Positions 17,799-32,613 of a stretch of DNA of 64,000 bases are shown piece by piece. Made by a program: the position numbers and the translations under genes. The notes below the pieces were generated by a model, which was not told the DNA's origin, made no database searches, and saw only the letters and a program-made list of their open reading frames with translations. Position 1 is the stretch's first letter, and each line of letters starts with the position of its first letter. The DNA is from an uncultured Clostridia bacterium (lineage in GTDB: Bacteria > Bacillota > Clostridia > TANB77 > CAG-508): positions 58,204 to 122,203 of the forward strand of contig CALYAM010000001.1 of NCBI GenBank assembly GCA_944393565.1. Direction: 5' to 3'.

Positions 17799-20180
17799 AT
17801 GAAAAAAATTCATGTTTTTTTGCTAATTTTATTTGGAATCATCCTATTTGGCAATATATCACACGCGGCAAGTAGTACAGAATACATTGATTCAGAAGTG
17901 TATGAAATTTCACAATTGGGCGAAGAAAAAATTGCAACAGGTTTAGATCAAAAGAATATGACGGCACAAACAATATTGGATAATTTCACATTGTTTCATA
18001 GTACACTTAGTAAGAAGGCTTATGATTTAGATGATAATGCTGTGGAAAGCACAGAAAAACTTGGCACAGGTTCAAAAATAAAGGCTGTTTTTTCTTATAG
18101 CAGTACTTTTGATTACCCATATGATAGCGTAACTTTAGTACTTTATGGTGATACAAATGGAGATGGAGATATTACTTCAGCAGACGCATTAGCTGTTATT
18201 AAAAATAAAACAGGAAAAGTAAAATTCCAAGATTCGTGTTTTGAAGAAGCAGGAAGGATAACAGAGAACACACGAAAAAATGCATCTATTCCTTCTTCAG
18301 CAGATGCACTAGCTATTATAAAATATAGATTAGGTAAGAACCAAATAACACAAACATATAAAAGAACAATAATAGTATCAAATTATCAAGACTTATATAT
18401 GCAACTTGAACAGGCAAATGAAAATATAAAGTTCGATTCTAGCACTGAAGGAAAACAAATAGAGGCAAGCTATAATCAACTAAAAAATGTTGTTAACACG
18501 TATTGTAAAAGCGATATGTCACAAATTACAAAAGCATTGATATTACATGATTATTTAGTAGCTGGTAGTAAAGTAGATAGAACTTCTGGTAAATATACTG
18601 AAGATTCAGCAGAGAGCAACATACAAAACGTAAATAAAACAATGAATGATTTAGGATTTGCAAATACATATACATCACTTCTTGGAATTGCTGGAATTGA
18701 GTCAAGAGTTATAAAGGGAAGGTCAGGAGCAACTACTATTAATATAATGAATGAAGTAACAATAGATGGACAAATGTATTATGTATCATGTGGAGCAGAT
18801 AGATACATTTCAGATAGGGAAGGTAAAAATGAAGTAAGAAGATATTTCTTTATGAGAAATACAGACGGGTTAAAAGAGCCTTTTTCGGCAAATTCAATGT
18901 TATTTATGTTAGAGCCACAAAGTAATAGAACTTCTACTTCTACAAAATATGAAGGTGTAATTTGGCCAGAATATAGGAAGGAATTGAATTACAAAGACTC
19001 TGAAATAAAATTAGCTAATGGCAAAGTTATAGTAGAAACGCTTTCAGAATTAAAAGAAGCATTACTTTCAGGTAAAAGTTATGCTATAAATGTAGTGGAT
19101 GGTTATTCACAAGAACTATATGAAATAGATGAACGTTGCAAAAAAATACTGGCAAAATATATTAAACCAGGAATGACAATAGAAGAGAAACTACTAACAA
19201 TACATGATTACATATGTTCAAATTTTATAAGAACAGATCATGAGGCAATTCTAGAGAGAGAAAAATCAGATGCTGAATATGATTGCGCATGGGGCCTATA
19301 CAAAAATACAATATTATCTAATATGGGAGACTGCTGGTCAATTACTGATTATTTTAATACTCTATGTGCATATATTGGACTAGAAACAAAATCAGTATCA
19401 GAGCATCAAGTGCCAAATCCATTTGGGTTAGGAAACCATATGTGGAGCCTTGTAAAATTAGATGGAAATTGGTACCACGTAGACTGCGAAGGAGGAGACT
19501 TTTATGCATATGGAAAAGTTGAGAGAAGATGGTTCTTATACAGTGATGATGCTATGCAAATAGAAGAAAATACATATGAACCATGTACTTCTACTAAATA
19601 TGATAACTATGATTGGCCTGAATTTAAAGGAGTAGCATATTATCAAGATGTAACAGGAATAATAGATGAAGATGTTCCAGCAACAAGTATATGGATAGAT
19701 GAGAGAACGGAGACCGTTGTTGGGGATTCATATAATATTATGACAAGAGTATTTCCATATGGCTCTACAAGCAAAGTAACATATACTTCAAGTAATCCTG
19801 CGATAGCAACGATCGATGCAAATGGCAATATGGAGATAAAAGGCAAGGGGCAAGCTACAATAACAGCAAGAACCTCAAATGGAATTACAAGATCATATAC
19901 TTTAACATCTCACTATGTTCCAGACAGAATATTGCTAGATGATTTGACTTTGTCAGTAGGAGAAACTAAACAGGCAATATATAATGTTATACCAGAGGGT
20001 GCTGAATTTGAATCTGAAGGCTGGAGAATAGTAAATGAAGATATTGCAACGATAGATGAAAAAACTGGAAAAGTTACTGGCAAAAGAGCAGGAACTACAT
20101 ATATGTATTTTGATTATAAATACAGAACAGAAGGAACTATTACTAGTACGTCAACATATGCAAGAGTTATAGTAAAATAA
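17799..20180 (+). CDS. Secreted protein with an N-proximal type-I dockerin, a tandem degenerate plus active transglutaminase-like cysteine-protease core, and a C-terminal Big_2 Ig-like domain
   Basis: Signal peptide. Dockerin repeat YGDTNGDGDITSADALAVIKNK with a second segment SSADALAIIKYRLGK. Transglutaminase-like Cys-His-Asp core GDCWSITDYF...GNHMWSLVKLDGNWYHVDCEG. Big_2-like VTYTSSNPAIATIDANGNMEIKGKGQATITA. Confidence 0.6.
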   Translation: MKKIHVFLLILFGIILFGNISHAASSTEYIDSEVYEISQLGEEKIATGLDQKNMTAQTILDNFTLFHSTLSKKAYDLDDNAVESTEKLGTGSKIKAVFSYSSTFDYPYDSVTLVLYGDTNGDGDITSADALAVIKNKTGKVKFQDSCFEEAGRITENTRKNASIPSSADALAIIKYRLGKNQITQTYKRTIIVSNYQDLYMQLEQANENIKFDSSTEGKQIEASYNQLKNVVNTYCKSDMSQITKALILHDYLVAGSKVDRTSGKYTEDSAESNIQNVNKTMNDLGFANTYTSLLGIAGIESRVIKGRSGATTINIMNEVTIDGQMYYVSCGADRYISDREGKNEVRRYFFMRNTDGLKEPFSANSMLFMLEPQSNRTSTSTKYEGVIWPEYRKELNYKDSEIKLANGKVIVETLSELKEALLSGKSYAINVVDGYSQELYEIDERCKKILAKYIKPGMTIEEKLLTIHDYICSNFIRTDHEAILEREKSDAEYDCAWGLYKNTILSNMGDCWSITDYFNTLCAYIGLETKSVSEHQVPNPFGLGNHMWSLVKLDGNWYHVDCEGGDFYAYGKVERRWFLYSDDAMQIEENTYEPCTSTKYDNYDWPEFKGVAYYQDVTGIIDEDVPATSIWIDERTETVVGDSYNIMTRVFPYGSTSKVTYTSSNPAIATIDANGNMEIKGKGQATITARTSNGITRSYTLTSHYVPDRILLDDLTLSVGETKQAIYNVIPEGAEFESEGWRIVNEDIATIDEKTGKVTGKRAGTTYMYFDYKYRTEGTITSTSTYARVIVK

Positions 20181-20367: not shown

Positions 20368-21042
20368 ATGAACGAAAAAATAAGAAAAGAAATAATTACT
20401 GTTTTTTGGATATTTGTAATTGGAAGTATTTTTGGATGTATAGCAGAGACGGTATATGGCTTTTTAAAAAATGGAGAGTTCTACATAAAAAAAGGTTTGA
20501 TTTATGGACCTTTTATACCAGTTTATGGTATTGGAGCAGTTATGTATTATTTTGTAGTTACAAAGGTTAAACATCCTGTAAATATATTTTTGTGCAGCAT
20601 GGTACTTGGAGGAGTTGCTGAATATATTTGTTCATATGCACAAGAAATATTTTTTGGAACAATTTCATGGGATTATAGTAATCTAGTGTTTAATTTAAAC
20701 GGTAGGACTAGTTTGATACATTGTATTTTGTGGGGGCTTGCTGGGATTTTTTATAGAATAATTGCATACCCATTTATTAAAAAATGGGTAAACAATTATA
20801 AAAAGGCAGAGTTTAAAGTATTTACATTTATAGTTGTATTGTTTATGACTGCTAATATAATTATTTCTTGCGCAGCAGGGAGTAGACAAAATGAAAGAGT
20901 AAAACAAATTCCAGCAACTAGTGAGCTAGACAAATTACTAGACAGATATTATCCTGATTCTGTAATGGACAAAATTTATGCTAATAAAATTGTGACTGTA
21001 AAAAGAAAAGAACCAATTTTGAAGCTTAACATAGAAAGGTGA
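20368..21042 (+). CDS. Polytopic membrane protein of unknown function, 224 aa
   Basis: About 5 TM helices. Contains a GPFIPVYGIG motif. No confident family assignment. Confidence 0.4.
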   Translation: MNEKIRKEIITVFWIFVIGSIFGCIAETVYGFLKNGEFYIKKGLIYGPFIPVYGIGAVMYYFVVTKVKHPVNIFLCSMVLGGVAEYICSYAQEIFFGTISWDYSNLVFNLNGRTSLIHCILWGLAGIFYRIIAYPFIKKWVNNYKKAEFKVFTFIVVLFMTANIIISCAAGSRQNERVKQIPATSELDKLLDRYYPDSVMDKIYANKIVTVKRKEPILKLNIER

Positions 21043-21160: not shown

Positions 21161-22891
21161 GTGAAAAAACGCGAAATTTTCATAAAATTATTAAGTTCGA
21201 TTATTTTGATAATAATAGCATACACATATATATTACCAAGCATTTCACTAGGTGCTGATATAAAACAGGAGCTTAAAACAGGAATTGATAATTTCCCAGA
21301 TAGCTATCAAGAAAAATTAAAAAAATTGAAAGAATTACACCCTAACTGGAACTTTCAAGCATATTATACAGGAATTGACTGGAACGAATTGATTAAAAAT
21401 GAAACTGGTGAAGTATTACACAAAAGAAGTGTTGTTCCTTCAGATTCACCAGACTTATGGAAATGCAATATGTGTGAAGATGATAAAGGATGGACATGCG
21501 CTTCAAAAGAAATTGTAGAATATTTTATTGATCCAAGGAATTTTTTAAATGAAGTTAATATTTTTCAATTTGAAGAACTTTCATTTAACAAAGATATACA
21601 TACATCAGAAGGAGTGCAAATTGCGGTTAAAAATACATTTCTCGATAATTCTATTACATACTATGATGAGGAAAAAAAACAAAACGTGACAAGAACATAT
21701 ACTGACATAATAATGGAAGTTGCTCAAAAAACTAATATAAGCCCATTCCATATTAAATCAAAAATTATTCAGGAAGTAGGGGCACAGGGAAGTCCATCTG
21801 TTTCAGGGACATATCCGGGTTATGAAAACTACTACAACTTTTTTAATTATGGTTCACATGATACAGGAGATCCAATTGTAAATGGTTTAAGCTTTGCAAA
21901 AGAAAAAGGTTGGAATAATCCATATAAAGCAATATTAGGAGGAGCAGAGCTAATAGGAACAACATATGTAAATCAGGGGCAGAATACATCTTATTTTTTT
22001 AAATATGACGTTGTTGGAGATAAAATACTGAAAGTTAATGAAACTAGTACTATAAGTGATTCATCACTTTACGCACATCAATATATGACAAATATAATGG
22101 ATCCTTATAGTCAAAGTTCATCTGTTTATAATGCTTATGTTAAAAATGGAAATATTGATGCTACCTTAAATTTTATTATCCCAGTATATGAAAATATGGA
22201 GGAATGTTATAAAAAACCAACAAAATATACTATAAAAGATGGAGAACTGTATTATGCAGATATAATAAAAGAAACAGGAGCAAGGGATGATGTGAAATTT
22301 GATAGTCCAGTTGTGTATTCAATACAAAAAGATGAAATAGTAATTATGATAAATAGAAAATGCGTATTCTCAGATGGAATATATTGGGACTTAGTTATGT
22401 TAGAAAATGGTTGGAATGTATATGTAGAAAGTAGCGACATGAAGCCATACAGAAGTGATGAAATGGAAAAACAAGATGAAACAGTTATTATAGATGAAGA
22501 AAGAAATACAATTACAGTAACACCACCAGTAGAGATGAAAAAAGTTATAGACGAACTTAAAATATCAAATTATAGTATAATAGATTCATCTGGAAAGGAA
22601 GTTGCAGGAGATAATAAAAAAGTTTGTACTGGCTATAAATTAAATATTTTAAAAGAAGATAATAAAACATTAGAAAAAGAATATACATTAATAAAAGTAG
22701 GAGATGTAAATGGAGATGGTAATCTACTGGCTACTGATTCTTTGGCAATATTAAAACATAGTATTGATGAAAGAAAGTTAGAAGAAGTATACTTAGAGGC
22801 TGCGGATGTTAGAAAAGATGGAAAAATAAATTCTGTAGATGCTTTACTTGTTTTAAAATATAGTCTAGGGAAAGTAAGTATTAATATTTAA
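21161..22891 (+). CDS. Putative peptidoglycan hydrolase (glucosaminidase-like domain) with a C-terminal type-I dockerin
   Basis: GTG start with an AGGAGG RBS and an N-terminal TM/signal segment. C-terminal duplicated Ca-loop repeats GDVNGDGNLLATDSLAILKHSI and DVRKDGKINSVDALLVLKYSLGK. The central region is weakly GH73-like (…ISPFHIKSKIIQEVGAQGS); the catalytic assignment is tentative. Confidence 0.5.
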   Translation: MKKREIFIKLLSSIILIIIAYTYILPSISLGADIKQELKTGIDNFPDSYQEKLKKLKELHPNWNFQAYYTGIDWNELIKNETGEVLHKRSVVPSDSPDLWKCNMCEDDKGWTCASKEIVEYFIDPRNFLNEVNIFQFEELSFNKDIHTSEGVQIAVKNTFLDNSITYYDEEKKQNVTRTYTDIIMEVAQKTNISPFHIKSKIIQEVGAQGSPSVSGTYPGYENYYNFFNYGSHDTGDPIVNGLSFAKEKGWNNPYKAILGGAELIGTTYVNQGQNTSYFFKYDVVGDKILKVNETSTISDSSLYAHQYMTNIMDPYSQSSSVYNAYVKNGNIDATLNFIIPVYENMEECYKKPTKYTIKDGELYYADIIKETGARDDVKFDSPVVYSIQKDEIVIMINRKCVFSDGIYWDLVMLENGWNVYVESSDMKPYRSDEMEKQDETVIIDEERNTITVTPPVEMKKVIDELKISNYSIIDSSGKEVAGDNKKVCTGYKLNILKEDNKTLEKEYTLIKVGDVNGDGNLLATDSLAILKHSIDERKLEEVYLEAADVRKDGKINSVDALLVLKYSLGKVSINI

Positions 22892-22940
22892 GTAACATTA
22901 TATTCATCTAAATTGTATAAATAATAAAGAGGGAGGAAAA

Positions 22941-24182
22941 ATGTCTAATTTTAATAAAGTATCAATATTAATTATAATTTTTTTGTTTGCACTGTGCAGT
23001 ACAAATATTGTACAGGCAATGACGATAGTATTGGATCCAGGGCATGGTGGACAAGATCCAGGAACTGTTAATGGAAGTATATATGAAAAAGATATAAATT
23101 TAAAGATTGCAAAATATTTAAAAGAATACTTAGAAGAATATGAAGGTGTTGAAGTAATCCTTACACACAATGGTTTAAGTAGTGGGGAATTAACAATATT
23201 TGAAAGAGCGATAATTGCAAGAAACAAAAAAGCTGATTTATTGGTAAGTATACATATTAATAGTTCAGAAACTTCAGAAGGGGAAGGCGCAGAAGTATAT
23301 GTAAGTGCAAATACTTCACTAGAAAAATATAATAAGGAAACAACAGAACTTGCAAATAAAATATTAGAAAATTTATCTGCTATAGGAATTGCTAATAGGG
23401 GAGTTTTAACTAAATTAATTCCAACAGATACAACAGATGTCTATTCAGATGGAACAAGAGCAGACTATATGGGAATTATTAGATATGCAATGAGGGGAAC
23501 TATGATAGATGATGGAGTAGTTACTATATTGCAAAACGGAGAAAAAGTAGAAGTACCTGAAAGTACATCTGCAAATGTCCAAAATGGAGAGGGAATACCT
23601 ACAATTTTAGTAGAACATTGCTTTATAAAAGGAAATGATTATAAATATATTGATTCAGATGAAGATATTAAAAAATTAGCAAAAGCAGACTTAGATGCAA
23701 TAGTTAAACAATATGATTTAAAACTAAAAACAGATGAAAAAGAGCCAACAACTCCAACAGATCCAACAAAACCAGATGAAATAAGACAAACAGATATAGA
23801 AATAAATGAGAAAGATAAAATAATTAGAATAACACCTTCAATAACAGTAGAAAATTTAGAAGAGAGACTAGAGACAACTGAATATTTTATTATTGACTCA
23901 GAAGGAAAAATATTAGATAAGGAAAAAGAAATCTTAGCTACAGGTTATAAATTGAAAGTTGGAGATAATACATATACAATAATAAAAATGGGTGACGTTA
24001 CAGGAGATGGAAAAGCAATTGCGGTTGATGGACTTGCAATATTAAAGCATAAACTTAAAAAAATAGAACTGGAAGGAATATATTTAAAAGCAGCAGATAC
24101 AACAAATGACGGTGCAATAACATCCGCGGATGCATTAGCTGTGATAAAAGATAGCGTATCTAAATTAATGATCCACTTATAA
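22941..24182 (+). CDS. N-acetylmuramoyl-L-alanine amidase (Amidase_3 family) with a C-terminal type-I dockerin
   Basis: Signal peptide. Amidase_3 motif LDPGHGGQDPGTV with EVILTH…SIHINS. C-terminal GDVTGDGKAIAVDGLAILKHKL and DTTNDGAITSADALAVIKDSV. Confidence 0.7.
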   Translation: MSNFNKVSILIIIFLFALCSTNIVQAMTIVLDPGHGGQDPGTVNGSIYEKDINLKIAKYLKEYLEEYEGVEVILTHNGLSSGELTIFERAIIARNKKADLLVSIHINSSETSEGEGAEVYVSANTSLEKYNKETTELANKILENLSAIGIANRGVLTKLIPTDTTDVYSDGTRADYMGIIRYAMRGTMIDDGVVTILQNGEKVEVPESTSANVQNGEGIPTILVEHCFIKGNDYKYIDSDEDIKKLAKADLDAIVKQYDLKLKTDEKEPTTPTDPTKPDEIRQTDIEINEKDKIIRITPSITVENLEERLETTEYFIIDSEGKILDKEKEILATGYKLKVGDNTYTIIKMGDVTGDGKAIAVDGLAILKHKLKKIELEGIYLKAADTTNDGAITSADALAVIKDSVSKLMIHL

Positions 24183-24205
24183 ATACAAGTTTAATGGAGG
24201 TAAAT

Positions 24206-25639
24206 ATGAGAAAACATAATAGAGTAATATTATTCTTTTTGTTTGTTGCTTTAATTTTTCTTGGAACGACTAATTCATTTGGAGCATATAGTGCAGAAAG
24301 CAAAACTGTAAATTCTGGAGAGAGTTTTAGCGTAACTGTAACATCAAGCGATGCTTTAGAAGCATATAATTTAGATTTATCAGGTTACGAGGGGTTAACA
24401 TTTAATGGATGCTTAATTCCAGAAGGAGGAACACTATCAGATAAAAATGATAATGGAAGTATAGCTTATATTAATGTTTCGGGAACTACCAATACACTTG
24501 GAACTTACCAATTTAGTGCTCCAGAAGTCACAGAAGATACTACATATATAATTCAGTTTTTGGTAGATAAAGAAACACCTGTTACATCAAATATTACAGT
24601 AAAAGCAAACAGCGCTCCAACTGAAGAACCAATAGAAGAACCAATAGAAGAATCCACAGAAGAACCCACAGAAGAACCCACAGAAGAACCAACACAGGAA
24701 CAAAACCCTGATGTGCCAGAGACACCAGCAAAATCTAGCAATACCAATTTAAGAAATTTAGGAATAAGACCAAATGACTTTACAGGATTTAAACCATGGA
24801 TTACATCCTATACTGTAACAAATGTACCAAATGATGTTACTACAATTGAAGTATATGCGTATAAGAGTGAAGATGGTCAAACAATTTCTGGAACAGGGAA
24901 AAAATCATTAGATGAAGGAACAAACCGCTTTCCTGTCACTGTAACTGCTGAAGATGGAACGCAAAAAACGTATACAATTACGGTAATTAGATTAGCAAGT
25001 GAAGAGATAAATAATCCAGATGTAGAACAGGCACCAGAAGTTAAACCAGGATTAACTAGCTTATCTATTGATGGTATTACTTTAAATGAACCATTTAGTC
25101 CTGACAAACAAGAGTATACAGCTGTTTTAGAGAAAGATATTGAAAGTACGACAGTAAATGCAGTAGCTAATATAGAAGGTGCAGTTATTGAAATAGAAGG
25201 AGAAGATAATTTAAGCGGAGAAAATAGTATAATAACAGTAAAAGTAAAAAATACTGATGGAAGTGAAGAAAAAACATATACAATAAACATAACAAAAAAG
25301 ATACAAGAACCTCAAGAAAATGAAAATGAAAACAATATTGCAACCATTGTAGGAAGTTCTAATAACTCATCTGGAAAAGGAAAAATAGGAATGGAAAAAA
25401 TTTTGTTCTGCCTAGGAATTGCAATAATTGCTGCTTTAGGAGTTATATTTACAATAATTAAATATAAAAGAGATAATGGAGACTATGAAGAAATTAATAC
25501 AATAGATTATGTTGGAAATGTCAATCCGATAGAAGCAATTAAAGATGCAAGTAGTGCTACATCTAGGCTTTCTGAGGTAAATGAAGAGACTATTAAAGAA
25601 ACAGCTGGAATACCAAGAAAAAAAGGACGTCATTTTTAA
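24206..25639 (+). CDS. Membrane-anchored surface scaffold. It has a signal peptide, a putative cohesin-like beta-sandwich, an EEP(I/T) acidic linker, two cadherin-like beta-sandwich domains, a TM helix and a 70-aa cytoplasmic tail.
   Basis: The N-terminal module SFSVTVTSSDALEAYNLDLSGYEGLTF resembles cohesin strands. Repeats LTSLSIDGITLNEPFSPDKQEYTAV and NLRNLGIRPNDFTGFKPWITSYTV match the cadherin-like (LSxLxxxxGxLxPxF) pattern. TM ILFCLGIAIIAALGVIFTII. The cohesin call is inferential. Confidence 0.5.
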   Translation: MRKHNRVILFFLFVALIFLGTTNSFGAYSAESKTVNSGESFSVTVTSSDALEAYNLDLSGYEGLTFNGCLIPEGGTLSDKNDNGSIAYINVSGTTNTLGTYQFSAPEVTEDTTYIIQFLVDKETPVTSNITVKANSAPTEEPIEEPIEESTEEPTEEPTEEPTQEQNPDVPETPAKSSNTNLRNLGIRPNDFTGFKPWITSYTVTNVPNDVTTIEVYAYKSEDGQTISGTGKKSLDEGTNRFPVTVTAEDGTQKTYTITVIRLASEEINNPDVEQAPEVKPGLTSLSIDGITLNEPFSPDKQEYTAVLEKDIESTTVNAVANIEGAVIEIEGEDNLSGENSIITVKVKNTDGSEEKTYTINITKKIQEPQENENENNIATIVGSSNNSSGKGKIGMEKILFCLGIAIIAALGVIFTIIKYKRDNGDYEEINTIDYVGNVNPIEAIKDASSATSRLSEVNEETIKETAGIPRKKGRHF

Positions 25640-25680
25640 AAAATATATAGATAATATTGAAAAAACAAAAAAAACGATAT

Positions 25681-25706
25681 ATACTAGTATGTGTTCATAC
25701 TAGTAT
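25681..25706. repeat. Two copies of the self-palindromic decamer ATACTAGTAT separated by gtgttc
   Basis: atactagtat-gtgttc-atactagtat read directly from the sequence; located between a gene end and tRNA-Thr. Confidence 0.8.
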
Positions 25707-25710
25707 ATAT

Positions 25711-25786
<76 letters not shown>

Positions 25787-25812: not shown

Positions 25813-28203
25813 ATGAAGAAAGTAAAACTTTTTTATCTGGTTTTTATTATTACATTATTTCTAGTTCTTATATGCTTTATACCAAACCAAGTTTTTGCAA
25901 CTACCAACTATTTTAAAACATCAACTTATAAAATTACAGAGGCGAAAAATAAAGTATTATCAAACTTAGATGCAAGTAATGTAAGTGTTCAAAATGTACT
26001 TGCAAATGTGTCGATTAATTTTAATACAGACATGTATGAAATAAGAGCCTATAACAATGGTGCGGAATTAGCATTAGATAAATTAATCGGAACTGGAAGC
26101 ATGCTAAAAGTAATGCACAAAAACTATAATTACTCTGTTGATTCAATAACGATTATTTTATATGGAGATACAAATGGAGATGGAAGCATTTCAGCAACAG
26201 ATGCACTTGCGATAATAAAAAATAAAACAGGTAAAATAAAATTTGAAAATGAATATTTTTTAGAAGCAGGCAGAATTACAACTCTAACTAGACAAAAAAA
26301 CGATGTGCCATCGTCAGTTGATGCTTTGGCTATAATAAAAAACAAACTGGGAAAATTAAATATTAGTCAATTTAGAAATATACAAGTAAAAGTTTCATCA
26401 TATGATGATTTGTACACTCAACTTAAACAATGTAATACAAATATAGAATTTGACAAAACGGCAGATAACTATAATGAAATGATATCGAGCTATGAAAAAC
26501 TACAAAGGATTGTAAAAAAATATTGTACAAATGAAATGTCTCAAACTGTAAAAGCTCTCGTTTTACATGACTATTTGGCGGCTGGAAGTATTTTAAATAA
26601 TGACACAACATACTGTGATAATTCAAGCAAGGAAAGTCATATTTGCAATATAGATGGAACAATGAATCAACTCGGATTTGCAAATACATATACATGCCTT
26701 TTAGGAATTGCAGGGATACCTTCTGAAATAAAACGAGATAAATACGCAAATTACGCCAATAATGCAATAAATGAAGTAATAATAGATGGACAAATGTATT
26801 ATGTTTCATGCGGAGTTGATAGTTATCTTTCTAAGGTTGAAGGAAAGGGCAAACTAAGAAGATATTACTTTTTAAGGAATACTGAGCAATTAAAAGAAAC
26901 TTTTTGGGAAGGTGATATTTACTTTGGCTATACACCATCAACTAACAATACATCAACATCTACAAAATATTATGGAGTAAGATGGCCAGAATACAGATCA
27001 ACTTTAGATTACAAAAATAATGAAATTAAATTAGCAACAGGGAAAACGATAGTTCGAAGCATGAGTGAACTTAAAGATGCAGTTATTAATAAAAAGGATT
27101 ATATTATAGATGTGATAGATGCAAATACAGAATCATTGGCAGAAGTAGACCAATTTAGTAAAAAAGTAATAGAAAAATATATAACAAAAGATATGAGCGA
27201 AGCTGAAAAGGCACTTGCAATATATGATTTTGTATGTTCTAATTTTATGAGAAATGATCATATAGCATATAGGGAAAGAACTAATGTGTCAAATTCAGAT
27301 TATGATGTTGCATGGGGCTCGTATAAGACATCCCTATTATCTGGGATGGGTGATTGCATAGGAGCGACGAATTCTTTTAATACTTTATGTGCATATGCAG
27401 GACTAGAAACTAAAACAATAAATGAACATCAGGTAGATGCTATACATGGTATGGGCAATCATCATTGGAGCTTGGTAAAAATAGATAACCAATGGTATCA
27501 CTGCGACTGTGAAGGAAGCGATTATTATACATATGGACAAGTAGACAGAACATGGTTTTTGTATAGTGATAGAGCAATGGGAGCAACAAATAATACTGTT
27601 GAAGCATGTACTTCTACTAAATATGATGACTATGATTGGCCTGAATTTAAGGGAATAGCATATTATCAAGATAAAACAGACATTATAGATGAAAAAGTTC
27701 CAGCTACAAGTTTTTGGACATCAGAAAGAACAGAAGCAATTGTTGGGGATGAATTTGCAATAATGACAAGGATATTCCCATATGGTTCTACTGATAAACC
27801 TACATATAGTTCAAGTAACCCTAAAGTAGCAACAATAGATAATGAAGGAAATATTAGTGTATTATCAATAGGAACAACCACAATAAAAATAGATGTAAAT
27901 GGAATTTCAAAAACATTTACAATAAAAACAGGTTCAAGACCTAAAGATATAATTGCTAAAGATATGACTTTGAAAGTCGGGCAAACAAGCAAGATTAATT
28001 ATGAAGTAAATCCAAGTGATGCTCTATATACAAAAATTTATTGGTACAGTTCTAATGAAAACATTGTAACAGTGGACGAAGATGGAAATGTTACAGCTGT
28101 AGGAGAGGGAACTGCAAATATAAGATTAAGCTATACATATAGAATGGGAAACTCAACGTATTATTCTTCTGGTAAATCTGCTAAGATAACAGTAACTAAA
28201 TAA
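25813..28203 (+). CDS. Paralog of the 17799 protein: N-proximal dockerin, transglutaminase-like cysteine-protease core and a C-terminal Big_2 domain
   Basis: Dockerin repeat YGDTNGDGSISATDALAIIKNK with SSVDALAIIKNKLGK. Transglutaminase-like core GDCIGATNSFNTLC...GNHHWSLVKIDNQWYHCDCEG. Big_2 PTYSSSNPKVATIDNEGNISV. Long stretches are near-identical to 17799-20180 at the DNA level. Confidence 0.6.
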   Translation: MKKVKLFYLVFIITLFLVLICFIPNQVFATTNYFKTSTYKITEAKNKVLSNLDASNVSVQNVLANVSINFNTDMYEIRAYNNGAELALDKLIGTGSMLKVMHKNYNYSVDSITIILYGDTNGDGSISATDALAIIKNKTGKIKFENEYFLEAGRITTLTRQKNDVPSSVDALAIIKNKLGKLNISQFRNIQVKVSSYDDLYTQLKQCNTNIEFDKTADNYNEMISSYEKLQRIVKKYCTNEMSQTVKALVLHDYLAAGSILNNDTTYCDNSSKESHICNIDGTMNQLGFANTYTCLLGIAGIPSEIKRDKYANYANNAINEVIIDGQMYYVSCGVDSYLSKVEGKGKLRRYYFLRNTEQLKETFWEGDIYFGYTPSTNNTSTSTKYYGVRWPEYRSTLDYKNNEIKLATGKTIVRSMSELKDAVINKKDYIIDVIDANTESLAEVDQFSKKVIEKYITKDMSEAEKALAIYDFVCSNFMRNDHIAYRERTNVSNSDYDVAWGSYKTSLLSGMGDCIGATNSFNTLCAYAGLETKTINEHQVDAIHGMGNHHWSLVKIDNQWYHCDCEGSDYYTYGQVDRTWFLYSDRAMGATNNTVEACTSTKYDDYDWPEFKGIAYYQDKTDIIDEKVPATSFWTSERTEAIVGDEFAIMTRIFPYGSTDKPTYSSSNPKVATIDNEGNISVLSIGTTTIKIDVNGISKTFTIKTGSRPKDIIAKDMTLKVGQTSKINYEVNPSDALYTKIYWYSSNENIVTVDEDGNVTAVGEGTANIRLSYTYRMGNSTYYSSGKSAKITVTK

Positions 28204-28463: not shown

Positions 28464-30129
28464 TTGTCATACATTATGTTTATTGTTCCATTCTGGTATG
28501 GATTGTTTTACGAATATGCAGCATTTGCTACAGGAATTGTTTTTTTAATATTACTTTGTAAAACAATAATGCAAAATAAAAAAATAATTATAAAAAGTGG
28601 CAAAAATTTTTATATTTATTCTATATTGATATTTTCTTATTTGGCAACTACAATTTGGGCTATTGATAAAGAAATGGCAATAGAGGGTTTTTTGAAGTTT
28701 TTACCGGGAATTTTTTATTTTATATTGCTAATGCAGTTCGAAAAAGAAGAAAAACAAAAAATATTAAACATGATACCAATAAGTGGTGTTACGATGGTTT
28801 TAATATCTTATGTTTTAGGACAAATACCAATACTTAAAGCTCAATTTTTTTCAGACAATGGTAGATTAGTAGGTTTTTTCCAATATTCTAATAGCTTTGC
28901 ATTATTTTTATTAATAAGTATTGTTATAATAGCAAACAAGAAACAAAAATATTTAAAAGACAAAATAGCACTGTGCATTCTCACACTTGGAATTTTAACA
29001 ACAGGTAGTAGATTTACATTTATCCTTACAGTACTATTTGGAATTTACCAGATAATAAAAAATAGACAAAGCAAGAAAAAAATACTAATTGGTATATTCC
29101 TAGCAATAGTAACACTAATTGTATCCGCAATTTTACTTGAAATTACAGGTAATATTGATATATTTGAAAGACTATTCAAAATATCATTCGAAGAGAGCTC
29201 TGTAATAGGAAGAATAATATATTATTTAGATGGATTAAAAATAATATTAAAAAATCCATTTGGATTACGGTTACATGGGATATAGTTATTACTACCCAGA
29301 AATCCAAACAGCAGACTATGCTATAAAATTTGTACATAATGATTTTATACAACAAGCTATAGATGCAGGCATTATTTCGATGCTTATGCTAATATATTTA
29401 TTTGTAAGTAATATATTTTCTAAAAAAAGCACTAGCTATAAGAGAGAAATATTAATTATTATGCTATTACACATGCTATTAGAATTTGATATGCAATTTA
29501 TAGTAATTCACTTAATATTTGTTATGTTATTGGCAGATAAAGAAGAAAAAGCTTACTTCTTTAGTATAAAACAGGCAAAACTAACAATTGTATTACTAGT
29601 CATAATTCAAACAAGCATTTTTATGTATTTTGGTATAGGTTCTATTTTGGATAAATATGGAAACTACCAAACTGCTTTAGCCTTGATTCCAAACAAAACA
29701 AATCCAAAGATACAAAAATTAAAAAATATGGATAATTTAGCAGAAGCCTATGAAGTTGCAAATGAATTACTGAGAGATAACAAATATATTCTGACAGCAT
29801 ATAAAGCAAAAGCCAATTATGCATATTATACAGAGAATTGGGAACAAATGATAGAAAATCAAAAAAAAGTAATTAGTCTGGATAAATATAATATAGAAAA
29901 TTATGAAGAATACATTTTCATGATTAGCAATGGATTAGATAAAACAATAAAACAAAATCAAACTGAAAAAACGAAATATTTAACAAAAGAGGCCTTAGAA
30001 GTTCGTAATCTTTTAGAAAATGTAAAAAAAGCTACAAGTCCATTAGCTTATAAAATAATAGACAAGCCAGAATTGGAATTAAATGATGCAACTAAGAAAT
30101 ATTTGAATGTGTTAGAAAACTACGATTAA
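28464..30129 (+). pseudogene. Wzy_C / O-antigen-ligase-like polytopic membrane protein with a C-terminal TPR-like soluble domain, split by a frameshift near 29265
   Basis: The N-terminal ORF (8 or more TM helices) ends ...NPFGLRLHGI*. The second ORF begins in another frame, with a 26-nt overlap, right at the conserved HNDFIQQAIDAGII loop motif of Wzy_C/O-antigen ligases. Confidence 0.5.
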
Positions 30130-30146: not shown

Positions 30147-32613
30147 ATGTTAAAAAACATTAAAATTATAATTGGTTTAATTCTTGTTATGCAAGTTGTA
30201 TTTACAGGAGTAATACCTGTTATAAGTAATGCAACAACGCAAAGCCTCATAACAGATGAAACTCTTTTAGCAACGATACATGATTATAATGGAGATAAAA
30301 TTATATCACAAAATGAACTAGACAAAGTAAGTTACCTCCAAATTTGGGAAGGAACGAAGGACCTAAGTGGTCTAGAAAATGCAAAAAACTTACGTAAAAT
30401 TTACTATGAATATGATGGCACGGCACTTGACTTTAGCAATATTAACCTAGATAAAGTAACTGATGTAATTATTTCAATATCAGATAATAATAAATTTGAT
30501 ATTGAGTTTTTAGACAAATTTCCAAGATTAAGAAAACTTGAAATAATATCAGATTATATTAGTAATGTAGATTTATCTAAACTTGCCAATTTCCAAAACA
30601 TAAAAAATCTTGAAATAAGAATTAATGATATTACTAATTTAAACGGAATAAACCAGTTAAAAAATCTAGAAGAACTATCAATAATAGCAAAGAGTAATGT
30701 AGACATAACTGAAATTGAAAAATTAAGTAAATTGGAAAAAGTATCATTTGATAATGTAAGACTTCAAAATGCAGAAGCTCTTGGGAAACTAATTAATTTA
30801 AAGGAAATTAGATTTTTCTCATGTACAGGAATATCTTCACCAAGTTATTTAAAGAATAATACAAATCTATGCAATTTAGACTTTTCACATTCTGATATAA
30901 CAGATATCTCTTTTGCAAAAGGCTTAAAAGAACTTGAAGAAATAGATTTAACTTCTACAAATGTAACAACAATAGAAGTATTAAAAGATTTGCCTAAATT
31001 GACTAGAGCAACTGTATTTGACTCTAAAGTTACAGAGGATCAAAGAGTTAATTTAATGGAATTTGAAGATTATACAGCATATGTTGGAGAAAGAAAAAAT
31101 ATAACTCCTATATTAGATGGAGTTATAGATAGGGAAAATTGGAATTATACATCCTCTGATGAAGATGTTGCCACAGTAAGTGAAGATGGAGCAGTACAAA
31201 CACTTAAAGTTGGAGAAGCTACAATAACAATGACAAATAAATTAACAAGTGATGTAAAAACAATGAAAATTACAGTAAAAGGAATTGAAAGTAATCCAGC
31301 TATAGGTGTTATGACAAATGCAATTCAGATAAGTGATAATTTAGTATTAAAGGAAAATGGAGAACTGTGGAAAATACATATAGATGAAGGAAAATCTGAA
31401 AGAGTAGATACTAATGTTGATAAATGTATAAGTGAATTTATATATAACGCAGATAGTTACCCTGTTCCATATACATTAAAATTAAAAGCTAATGGTACTG
31501 GTGTGCTTGAATTTAATGGAGTAACAAGTAAAATAGAAAATGTAAAAGATATCTGCAGGAAAGGCTACTTAAGTACAGATGGAATCTATTATGAACTTTT
31601 ATTTGACGGCACATGGTTAGAAGTAACAGACAACGTTAAAAAAATAGTTGACTGGTATTTAGTTAAAAACGACGGAAAGACATATGACACTTATGGACAG
31701 TTAGCGTGCAATTTTGAAATAATTGCAGCATCAGGAACTACTGTTGTAGATGAAAATAAAACTGTTTGGAAAAAGAGCTCAAGCACAGTAACTTCTTACA
31801 AATGGGAAAAAATTGGAGAAAACTTTAAACGCTATACAGACGGAACAGAAAATTCATATTCCACTTCATACGAAACAAATGATGGAAAGATTATGAATGT
31901 ATTTGGTAATGAAGTTCAGTACCAAAAAGAAGTATACTGTGAATCAAATAAATTAAGGCTTGATAAAAACAAAAATGCATTATTAAATGATACAATTATT
32001 TTAGATGCTGTAACTTCTATGTATGTAATAGATTCAAATAATATTGTATTTATAAGAAACGATGGAAGTGCATGGGTTTTGCAATTAGAAGGAAAGGCTA
32101 AATTAGAAAAAATAGAAGAACAAACCGGGAAAGTATTTTTCACAAGTGATAAGCTAAAAACAAAAGTAATAGCTTTAGATGAACATGAAGGTGATATAGT
32201 TATAGGAGAAGCACTAATTCGGATTTGATATAAACAATCTAGAAATATCAAATATTATACAGGAATTTAAAGAAGACTATACAGTAAAAGTATATTCTAA
32301 TGGCAAAGAATTACCAGATGATGATAATTTGGCAACAGGAGATGTAATTAGATTATATAATGATGACAATAAGCCTATAAAAGAATATATCGCATTAGTG
32401 TATGGAGATGTAACAAGTTCTGGAAATCCAGGCGCAAAAGATGCTCTAGCTATAGTAAAGAATAGAACAGGCAAAGTTGTAATAGAAAATGCATTAAACT
32501 TAGAAGCTGCAAGAGTAACAGAAATCACAAGAAAAACAGTAGGAGAACCTACATCTTCAGATTCACTCGCAATTATAAAATCAAAGCTTGGAAAATATAC
32601 AATTAATTTATAA
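30147..32613 (+). pseudogene. Secreted LRR (internalin-like) protein with a Big_2 domain, a beta-rich region and a C-terminal dockerin, interrupted by a frameshift at about 32213
   Basis: A 693-aa ORF ends ...GEALIRI*. In another frame an ORF with no start codon continues FGFDINNLEI...VYGDVTSSGNPGAKDALAIVKNRTGK...SSDSLAIIKSKLGK (dockerin). The whole is collinear with the intact paralog at 32628-35054. Confidence 0.55.

Follow-up and report, generated by a model that had tools for sequence, protein, structure and literature searches.

Putative autolysins with C-terminal dockerins and an adjacent cohesin-like membrane protein in an uncultured Clostridia bacterium

Little is known of how gut anaerobes of the class Clostridia place their autolysins and keep them in check; most such organisms are uncultured. 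We analysed a 64,000-nt stretch of contig CALYAM010000001.1 (assembly GCA_944393565.1; "the window", to which all positions refer), low-GC Firmicute DNA of ~28% GC in which two adjacent genes encode peptidoglycan-hydrolase-type proteins that both end in a dockerin. To what would a dockerin hold such an enzyme? In the reading that we favour, with a probability of roughly 0.6, these two genes and the membrane-protein gene that follows them make up an operon that tethers two putative autolysins to the producer's own envelope via dockerin-cohesin pairing. Several human-gut metagenome contigs carry the same locus, and the nearest species-level genome is "Clostridia bacterium HGM13623" (85% identity).

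The two hydrolases and their X-dockerin cassettes

Open reading frames (ORFs) of 576 and 413 amino acids (aa), here genes 1 and 2, lie on the same strand exactly where an earlier sequence-only reading of this DNA had placed them. Their parts are as follows.

21161-22891, + strand: gene 1, secreted GH73-like N-acetylglucosaminidase (predicted) followed by an SH3b-like module, an X module and a dockerin, 576 aa
21266-22198, + strand: GH73-like catalytic region of gene 1, aa ~36-346, putative catalytic Glu205 (phmmer against PDB, NCBIfam)
22229-22435, + strand: diverged SH3b-like module of gene 1, aa 357-425 (alignment to PF08239-positive relatives)
22487-22690, + strand: X module of gene 1, aa 443-510, immediately upstream of the dockerin (BLASTP, profile match)
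22691-22888, + strand: class-A dockerin of gene 1, aa 511-576 (PF00404)
22941-24182, + strand: gene 2, secreted Amidase_3 (predicted) followed by a linker, an X module and a dockerin, 413 aa
23025-23705, + strand: Amidase_3 catalytic domain of gene 2, aa 29-255 (PF01520)
23799-23981, + strand: X module of gene 2, aa ~287-347 (profile match E 2.8e-15; BLASTP against gene 1)
23982-24179, + strand: class-A dockerin of gene 2, aa 348-413 (PF00404)

Gene 1 begins with a signal-peptide-like N-terminus, as read from the sequence, and its catalytic part matched solved GH73 enzymes in a phmmer search of PDB (SagB 6fxp/6u0o, Atl 6fxo, AtlE 4pi7; E 4e-12 to 1e-10 over aa 178-283). In these alignments the catalytic Glu of the solved enzymes (index 155 of 6u0o) is paired with E205, a residue that was invariant in 16 aligned relatives. 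The Pfam glucosaminidase model gave no match at E <= 10 on the catalytic region, and the NCBIfam SagB model matched with E 1.9e-17 and 63 bits, far below its family cutoff of 425. Because neither curated model was reached at threshold, we use the term GH73-like and describe gene 1 as a predicted GH73-like endo-N-acetylglucosaminidase exported by Sec. Two cysteines in the N-lobe of this domain, C102 and C113 (21464-21499), were also invariant in all 16 aligned relatives, as was a YYIDPRNFL motif, and a C102/C113 disulfide in the exported enzyme is possible.

Gene 2 likewise has a signal-peptide-like N-terminus, and its catalytic domain matched positions 1-173 of the 174-position PF01520 profile (E 2.7e-35, 122.4 bits, cutoff 27). 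The motifs GHGG (H35), E49, SIH (H105) and LVE (E225) were conserved in alignments to 4rn7 and 8c0j; we take H35, E49 and H105 to be the Zn ligands (His-Glu-His) and E225 to be the catalytic Glu, and gene 2 to be an exported predicted zinc Amidase_3. It fell below the NCBIfam equivalog cutoffs of the named amidase subfamilies (74 bits against 221 for CwlD, 64 against 532 for AmiB, and likewise across the CwlD, AmiA-C and LytH equivalogs). A CwlD-like sporulation amidase was considered and rejected, the best NCBIfam match being far below its cutoff and the spo0A neighbour seen at one related locus (L004; L-numbers denote loci of relatives used for comparison) being absent from the other loci examined. 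The Amidase_3 domain is long, with 227 residues against the 174 profile positions, and its ~55 extra residues (23325-23600) sit between the substrate-groove region and the catalytic Glu.

Type-I dockerins consist of two tandem ~22-residue segments, each made of a 12-residue Ca-binding loop (D1, N/D3, D5, D/E12) and a helix. Both hydrolases matched the Dockerin_1 model PF00404 above its cutoff of 22.9 bits, gene 1 over aa 514-567 (E 4e-11, 43.4 bits) and gene 2 over aa 351-403 (E 1.3e-7, 32.2 bits), and the gene 1 dockerin also matched solved dockerins (E 2e-7 to 1e-3). Each dockerin has two tandem loops, DVNGDGNLLATD and DVRKDGKINSVD in gene 1 and DVTGDGKAIAVD and DTTNDGAITSAD in gene 2, with D1, D5, G6 and D12 present in all four. 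Together with the PF01520 and GH73 matches above, these results confirmed the core of the sequence-only reading, a glucosaminidase-like and an Amidase_3 gene side by side with C-terminal dockerins. The dockerins of the two proteins are 53% identical and form the end of a larger shared cassette, in which the last ~133 aa, X module plus dockerin, are 43% identical (BLASTP, E 1e-31); the X module itself (~65 aa) matched no Pfam family.

The window encodes six dockerin-like proteins and two cohesin-like proteins in total, and within it the two-loop dockerins, which we call class A, are found on the two hydrolases only. The other four, class B, are dockerin-like modules on two transglutaminase-like/Big_2 proteins and two leucine-rich-repeat (LRR)/Big_2 proteins, in which an R[IV]TE.[TS]RK segment, longer by 5 residues, takes the place of the second Ca loop.

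The sequence-only reading had further proposed that the dockerins stand in place of wall-binding repeats. This applies to gene 2, in which no recognisable wall-binding domain was found, and not to gene 1. Residues 357-425 of gene 1 align in register, column for column, with the SH3_3 domain (PF08239) of its relatives and scored 46.5 bits (E 1.4e-16) against a profile built from five PF08239-positive relatives only; this test, like the hhalign tests below, used disjoint sequence sets and negative controls. Pfam SH3_3 gave no match on gene 1 itself even at E <= 10, so that gene 1 appears to retain a diverged SH3b that lies below Pfam's own threshold. The premise that dockerins replace wall-binding modules also failed among relatives: dockerins were present in 117/120 of the best protein clusters nearest gene 1, and 94/120 carried Pfam SH3_3 as well as the dockerin. 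Nor is the arrangement unusual, as had been implied, since 94/120 of the best clusters nearest gene 2 have a dockerin too and it is in part published (PMC4611034, PMC4081043, PMC6487960, PMC6403190). Eight of those 120 amidase clusters have SLH (PF00395) without a dockerin, which fits a picture in which the dockerin would be one of several interchangeable envelope-targeting modules.

Relatives of both enzymes are numerous. At E <= 1e-5, gene 1 has at least 1970 among 8000 candidates scored and gene 2 at least 529 among the candidates scored. In species-representative genomes, relatives of gene 1 are encoded in at least 591 stretches, all of them in uncultured gut Clostridia, Lachnospiraceae, Bacilli and similar metagenome-assembled genomes (MAGs). 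This distribution bears on the idea that the pair is a prophage lysis cassette of two endolysins. Glucosaminidase and Amidase_3 domains are common in endolysins, and phage records did match the amidase catalytic domain; those matches, however, were at most 34% identical, covered the catalytic domain only (56-59% of the query) and in no case extended over the X-dockerin. Each protein begins with a signal-peptide-like sequence, the locus is found again in many MAGs, and the ORFs scanned around the pair included no phage genes and instead surface-protein, tRNA and envelope genes. We regard the prophage explanation as effectively refuted.

The adjacent membrane protein as a candidate scaffold

A third gene follows on the same strand. 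The gaps are 49 nt between genes 1 and 2 and 11 nt between genes 2 and 3, and the three genes (21161-22891, 22941-24182 and 24194-25639) look like one operon-like unit.

24194-25639, + strand: gene 3, putative monovalent scaffold, 481 aa (PF12733 E 2e-20, AlphaFold2 model, family alignment, synteny)
24275-24616, + strand: cohesin-like N-terminal module of gene 3, aa 28-141
25391-25474, + strand: transmembrane (TM) helix of gene 3, aa ~400-427 (helix in the AlphaFold2 model; hydrophobic segment conserved in the family)

From its N-terminus, gene 3 encodes a signal peptide, a cohesin-like beta module (~110 aa), an acidic P/T/E linker, two cadherin-like domains (PF12733), the TM helix and a ~54-aa tail. 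With moderate-to-good confidence in the cohesin identity, we read it as a predicted single-pass membrane protein whose extracellular stalk carries a single divergent cohesin at its tip. Because direct Pfam and PDB sequence searches were silent on this module, the assignment was made through its fold and through profile-profile links. Foldseek searches with the full-length gene 3 model were dominated by multi-domain cadherin and Ig chains, and the domain was therefore modelled alone. Folded in this way, it gave nine strands with a predicted local distance difference test score (pLDDT) of 90.6, and its best structural matches include cohesins of Clostridium perfringens (2w1n, 2vo8, 2ozn) and Archaeoglobus fulgidus (2xdh).

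Profile comparisons across the family point to a cohesin. Among the N-terminal modules of partner proteins at other loci, Pfam Cohesin was the most frequent family (16/42, best E 3e-8), and a profile of partner modules matched solved cohesins (6kgc at E 6.5e-6, plus 1g1k, 2vn5, NagJ and others). All-against-all clustering of these modules was done on trimmed domains, without signal peptides and linkers. A profile of the window's own clade aligned with the cohesin-recognised module cluster in hhalign over 100 columns (96.9% probability, E 1.5e-10), and a strictly disjoint clade set still gave 91% (E 1e-6), with cadherin-like-domain controls below 3%.

Gene order tied this membrane protein to the dockerin. 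An adjacent cadherin-like partner gene on the same strand was present at 46/47 dockerin-bearing glucosaminidase loci, directly downstream and often overlapping at 45 of them, compared with an adjacent cadherin-like gene at 14/39 dockerin-less glucosaminidase loci (Fisher test, odds ratio 82, p 1e-10, uncorrected for phylogeny). Amidase-dockerin genes were followed by a cohesin-like TM protein in 5/6 contexts (the window, L004, L087, L088 and L089; not L090). Over 35 loci, dockerin distances correlated with cohesin-module distances (r 0.60) more strongly than either did with those of the catalytic domain (r 0.43 and 0.48), and the partial Mantel r given the catalytic domain was 0.50, with 0/2000 permutations as high. 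Positioning through a cohesin scaffold, the central proposal of the sequence-only reading, thus has good comparative evidence in the gene lying 11 nt downstream, in these counts and in the co-variation, and remains a predicted interaction.

These same results bear on the notion that the dockerin-like modules are Ca2+-stabilised folding units without a protein partner, and that the adjacency reflects some other shared function. Many non-cellulosomal dockerins have no known cohesin, and the gene 3 module gives no cohesin match at the sequence level. For noncellulolytic species, few cases are on record in which these modules work as part of a complex (Ze 2015, PMC4611034). Adjacency at 46/47 loci against 14/39, partner modules in relatives that are sequence-recognisable cohesins, and the co-variation of dockerin with cohesin-like module all run counter to this notion, which we find highly improbable.

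Several observations nevertheless weigh against a dockerin-mediated tether to gene 3. The Ca loops, called canonical in the sequence-only reading, are duplicated as it said and only near-canonical: position 3 is R or T in 3/4 loops, not N/D, and N in one. The gene 3 module itself had no Pfam match to cohesin (PF00963), the best cohesin found when the window-clade profile was run against PDB was 5n5p at E 1.1, and with the strict window-clade profile the cohesin homology covers only 41 columns. The partial Mantel test is liberal for phylogenetically related sequences, which makes the co-variation supportive only. A cadherin-like neighbour is also present next to 13 glucosaminidase relatives that have no dockerin, and in seven of these (L042, L065, L069, L070, L077, L078 and L082) the neighbour carries a homologous N-terminal module. 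When the 13 were checked for hidden dockerins none was found; they end in Big_2 or cadherin-like domains, and the glucosaminidases of the seven end in a cadherin-like domain. Because these seven keep a module-bearing partner, the partnership is not strictly dockerin-dependent, and glucosaminidase and scaffold may also associate through cadherin-like contacts. Finally, the window holds a second cohesin-like protein, with a sortase-type signal, that could be the true receptor.

35155-35805, + strand: sortase gene, directly upstream of the second cohesin-like protein (PF04203 E 1.6e-23)
35830-36627, + strand: second cohesin-like protein, 265 aa, with a sorting-signal-like C-terminus (partner-module profile, PDB matches)

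In this protein a signal peptide is followed by a cohesin-like module and a linker of (NTAGNT)n repeats, and the C-terminal end is made of IPQAG, a hydrophobic stretch and KTRKK; the protein looks like a ScaE-like wall-anchored receptor. Pfam was silent on its module, which matched the partner-module profile at E 1.2e-13; its top six PDB matches were all cohesins (E 0.005-0.2). The class-A dockerins might bind this wall-anchored protein in the manner of ScaE, leaving gene 3 some other role, such as regulating the glucosaminidase by different contacts. Besides the profile match, the sorting-signal-like end and the upstream sortase, this alternative draws on a Ruminococcus flavefaciens NlpC/P60-X-dockerin protein reported to bind the sortase-anchored ScaE (PMC3573020) and on the dockerin-less relatives that retain a membrane partner. 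Synteny and co-variation, on the other hand, tie the dockerin to the adjacent membrane protein and not to a distant gene, and 35830-36627 adjoins the class-B dockerin LRR genes, which suggests that it serves those. We consider a sortase-anchored receptor for the hydrolases decidedly unlikely.

At one set of related loci (L004-L006, 4667-5404; a 48% identity relative) the hydrolase/scaffold cluster lies directly downstream of spo0A in a different gene order, with an extra 260-aa cadherin-like TM protein, lacking a cohesin-like module, between the two hydrolase genes.

Tethering to the producer's envelope and comparable systems

In the favoured scheme, both hydrolases would be exported by Sec and their class-A X-dockerin cassettes would bind the gene 3 cohesin in a Ca2+-dependent manner, fixing the enzymes to the cell's own envelope, a set distance out from the membrane. 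So tethered, they would serve as autolysins that turn over the wall, trim glycan strands or separate daughter cells, and the dockerin would take over the targeting done elsewhere by SLH, CWB2, LysM or SH3b domains. Within this scheme we infer physical binding, the choice of receptor between the two cohesin-like proteins, enzymatic activity, localisation and physiological role.

The hydrolases could instead face outward, as a "lyticome" (a term coined by Vermassen et al. 2019, PMC6403190) displayed with the LRR and transglutaminase-like dockerin proteins so as to lyse neighbouring bacteria or scavenge the peptidoglycan of neighbouring or dead ones. The number of dockerin-like and cohesin-like proteins in the window, adhesin-like LRR/Big_2 proteins among them, would suit such a display, the gene 1 SH3b could recognise foreign walls, and attack or defence has been proposed in print for dockerin-borne lysozymes and carboxypeptidases (PMC6487960), as has the lyticome idea itself (PMC6403190). 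Set against this, the syntenic scaffold has a single cohesin-like module, is TM-anchored in the producer's membrane and has a stalk of only two cadherin-like domains; the hydrolase dockerins are of class A, whereas the LRR and transglutaminase-like ones are of class B. Very many gut Firmicutes share the pairing of glucosaminidase and partner, a conservation that looks like housekeeping, and no immunity gene was evident, though no search was aimed at one. An outward-facing lyticome therefore seems unlikely to us, and a scaffold anchored in the producer's own membrane would favour a self-directed role over antagonism.

The tail of gene 3 suggests a further link to the cell interior. It is predicted to be cytoplasmic (25475-25636) and ends in ...KKGRHF, and tails of the family end in a nearly invariant KGK[HR]F(K), with G478 and F481 conserved in at least 90% of 44 sequences; such constancy suggests an intracellular binding partner. 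As a speculative extension, which we regard as doubtful, the pair of glucosaminidase-dockerin and cohesin-stalk-TM protein, with an optional amidase-dockerin client, would be a core module, widespread and so far not characterised, by which gut Clostridia and Bacilli control their autolysins. Docking would link the hydrolases to the membrane protein, and an intracellular signal would reach that protein through its ...KGKHF tail; in function the arrangement would parallel FtsEX-hydrolase or SagB-SpdC control, and it would be assembled from cellulosome parts.

Control of related enzymes at the membrane has precedent in Staphylococcus aureus, where the SagB glucosaminidase works with the membrane protein SpdC and the LytH amidase with ActH. 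NCBIfam names SagB "peptidoglycan release complex glucosaminidase", and LytH is represented by PDB 7tj4. The catalytic domains are homologous to those of the window, and in both cases a GH73 or Amidase_3 enzyme is, or in our scheme would be, controlled at the membrane by a dedicated partner. SagB and LytH differ in being membrane-anchored themselves, with polytopic partners and no cohesin-dockerin pair, and the window proteins lie far below the SagB and CwlD cutoffs. Homologous Amidase_3 domains also occur in conventional autolysins of Firmicutes, such as Clostridioides difficile Cwp6 (Amidase_3 + CWB2, PDB 5j72) and in SLH-amidases, which bind a wall polymer, whereas targeting of gene 2 would be protein-protein docking.

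Cohesin-dockerin pairs that serve peptidoglycan-active enzymes are on record. In the non-cellulolytic Ruminococcus bicirculans a GH73 enzyme is associated with the genome's only dockerin and only cohesin, according to Wegmann et al. 2014 as cited in Ze et al. 2015 (PMC4611034), and dockerin-bearing GH73 enzymes occur in R. albus strains (Dassa et al. 2014, PMC4081043). As far as that citation describes it, the R. bicirculans pair resembles the present locus in joining a GH73 enzyme, a dockerin and a lone cohesin in a gut Firmicute; Ruminococcus/Ruminococcaceae MAG loci (L051, L074) are among the relatives found here, and the partner at L074 has a sub-threshold Pfam Cohesin match. Beyond what is cited of that report, the present locus has an Amidase_3 as second client, an X module common to both enzymes and a cadherin-like stalk held by a TM helix, and its relatives extend far past Ruminococcus.

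Other likenesses are partial. R. champanellensis has a cellulosomal lysozyme, the GH25-fused ScaK (Morais et al. 2016, as cited in PMC13463774 and PMC6403190), and rumen metagenomes encode dockerin-linked lysozymes and D-Ala-D-Ala carboxypeptidases for which wall attack or defence was proposed (Bensoussan et al. 2017, PMC6487960). These too place peptidoglycan-active modules in cohesin-dockerin assemblies, but there, as far as the cited accounts go, GH25 or peptidase modules are built into large cellulosomes that degrade plant fibre, whereas here GH73-like and Amidase_3 enzymes have a dedicated, putatively monovalent membrane scaffold and no plant-cell-wall enzymes were found among the ORFs scanned in the window. 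The R. flavefaciens protein noted above, RflaF_05439, combines two NlpC/P60 domains with an X-dockerin dyad and is reported to bind sortase-anchored ScaE (PMC3573020). It is a putative peptidoglycan peptidase that docks by an X-dockerin dyad onto a cell-anchored single cohesin, as the hydrolases here would by theirs, and the window too has a sortase-linked cohesin-like protein; it differs in catalytic family and in its R. flavefaciens-type X-dockerin, and the receptor we favour is a TM protein, not a sortase substrate. The C. perfringens NagJ/NagH modules (2w1n, 2vo8, 2ozn) and the A. fulgidus cohesin (2xdh) are further cohesin-dockerin components outside plant-fibre degradation, and these cohesins are also among the sequence matches of the partner-module profile, with the difference that the C. 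perfringens modules join secreted toxins and glycosidases to each other, whereas here autolysins would be joined to a membrane stalk.

This kind of system is therefore already on record in the R. bicirculans pair, the dockerin-borne lysozymes and the lyticome, and the locus is a good example of an idea that is not new. In the literature searched, whose coverage was incomplete, we found no paper on Amidase_3-dockerin proteins or on a TM cohesin/cadherin-like scaffold. Gene 3 has a single cohesin-like module, and no carbohydrate-binding module, cellulase or hemicellulase occurred among the ORFs scanned; a cellulosome, by contrast, has a multi-cohesin scaffoldin that integrates dockerin-borne plant-cell-wall CAZymes, with a carbohydrate-binding module, and by these hallmarks the locus is a non-cellulosomal cohesin-dockerin system. 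If the tether is real, hundreds of gut species would routinely use cohesin-dockerin pairing, best known from cellulosomes, to keep wall-cutting enzymes on their own envelope. With its two classes of dockerin and two cohesin-like receptors, this 20-kb region would also be a compact toolkit for studying docking specificity, for surface display design, and for work on lysis and cell separation in gut Firmicutes.

Neighbouring genes

The class-B dockerin-like proteins and the gene preceding gene 1 are listed here.

17799-20180, + strand: transglutaminase-like/Big_2 protein with a class-B dockerin-like module near the N-terminus (aa ~116-180)
20368-21042: CmpB-like membrane protein, polytopic (PF06541), encoded directly upstream of gene 1
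25813-28203, + strand: paralogous transglutaminase-like/Big_2 protein with a class-B dockerin-like module near the N-terminus (aa ~117-184)
30147-32610, + strand: LRR/Big_2 surface protein, body 30147-32228, with its X + class-B dockerin tail (32218-32610) frameshifted off
32628-35054, + strand: second LRR/Big_2 surface protein with a C-terminal X + class-B dockerin-like module

Both classes of dockerin and both cohesin-like modules fall within ~20 kb. The CmpB-like gene was left out of the proposed system because it recurs only in the close clade and one further locus (L001-L003, L007 and L087), not in the wider family. The frameshifted LRR/Big_2 gene has an ortholog at L007 (14898-17378) that is one intact 827-aa ORF, with 79% and 73% identity to the two pieces, and the frameshift (30147-32228 / 32218-32610) marks a genuine pseudogene or else stems from an error in assembly.

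A tRNA-Thr(CGT) (25711-25786), preceded by an inverted repeat with a 15-bp stem (25677-25710), separates the scaffold gene from the second transglutaminase-like gene. A Wzy_C (O-antigen-ligase-like) membrane protein appears split into overlapping ORFs at 28464-29285 and 29260-30129, the second of which has weak Wzy_C and Wzy_C_2 matches, and this split may be another frameshift.

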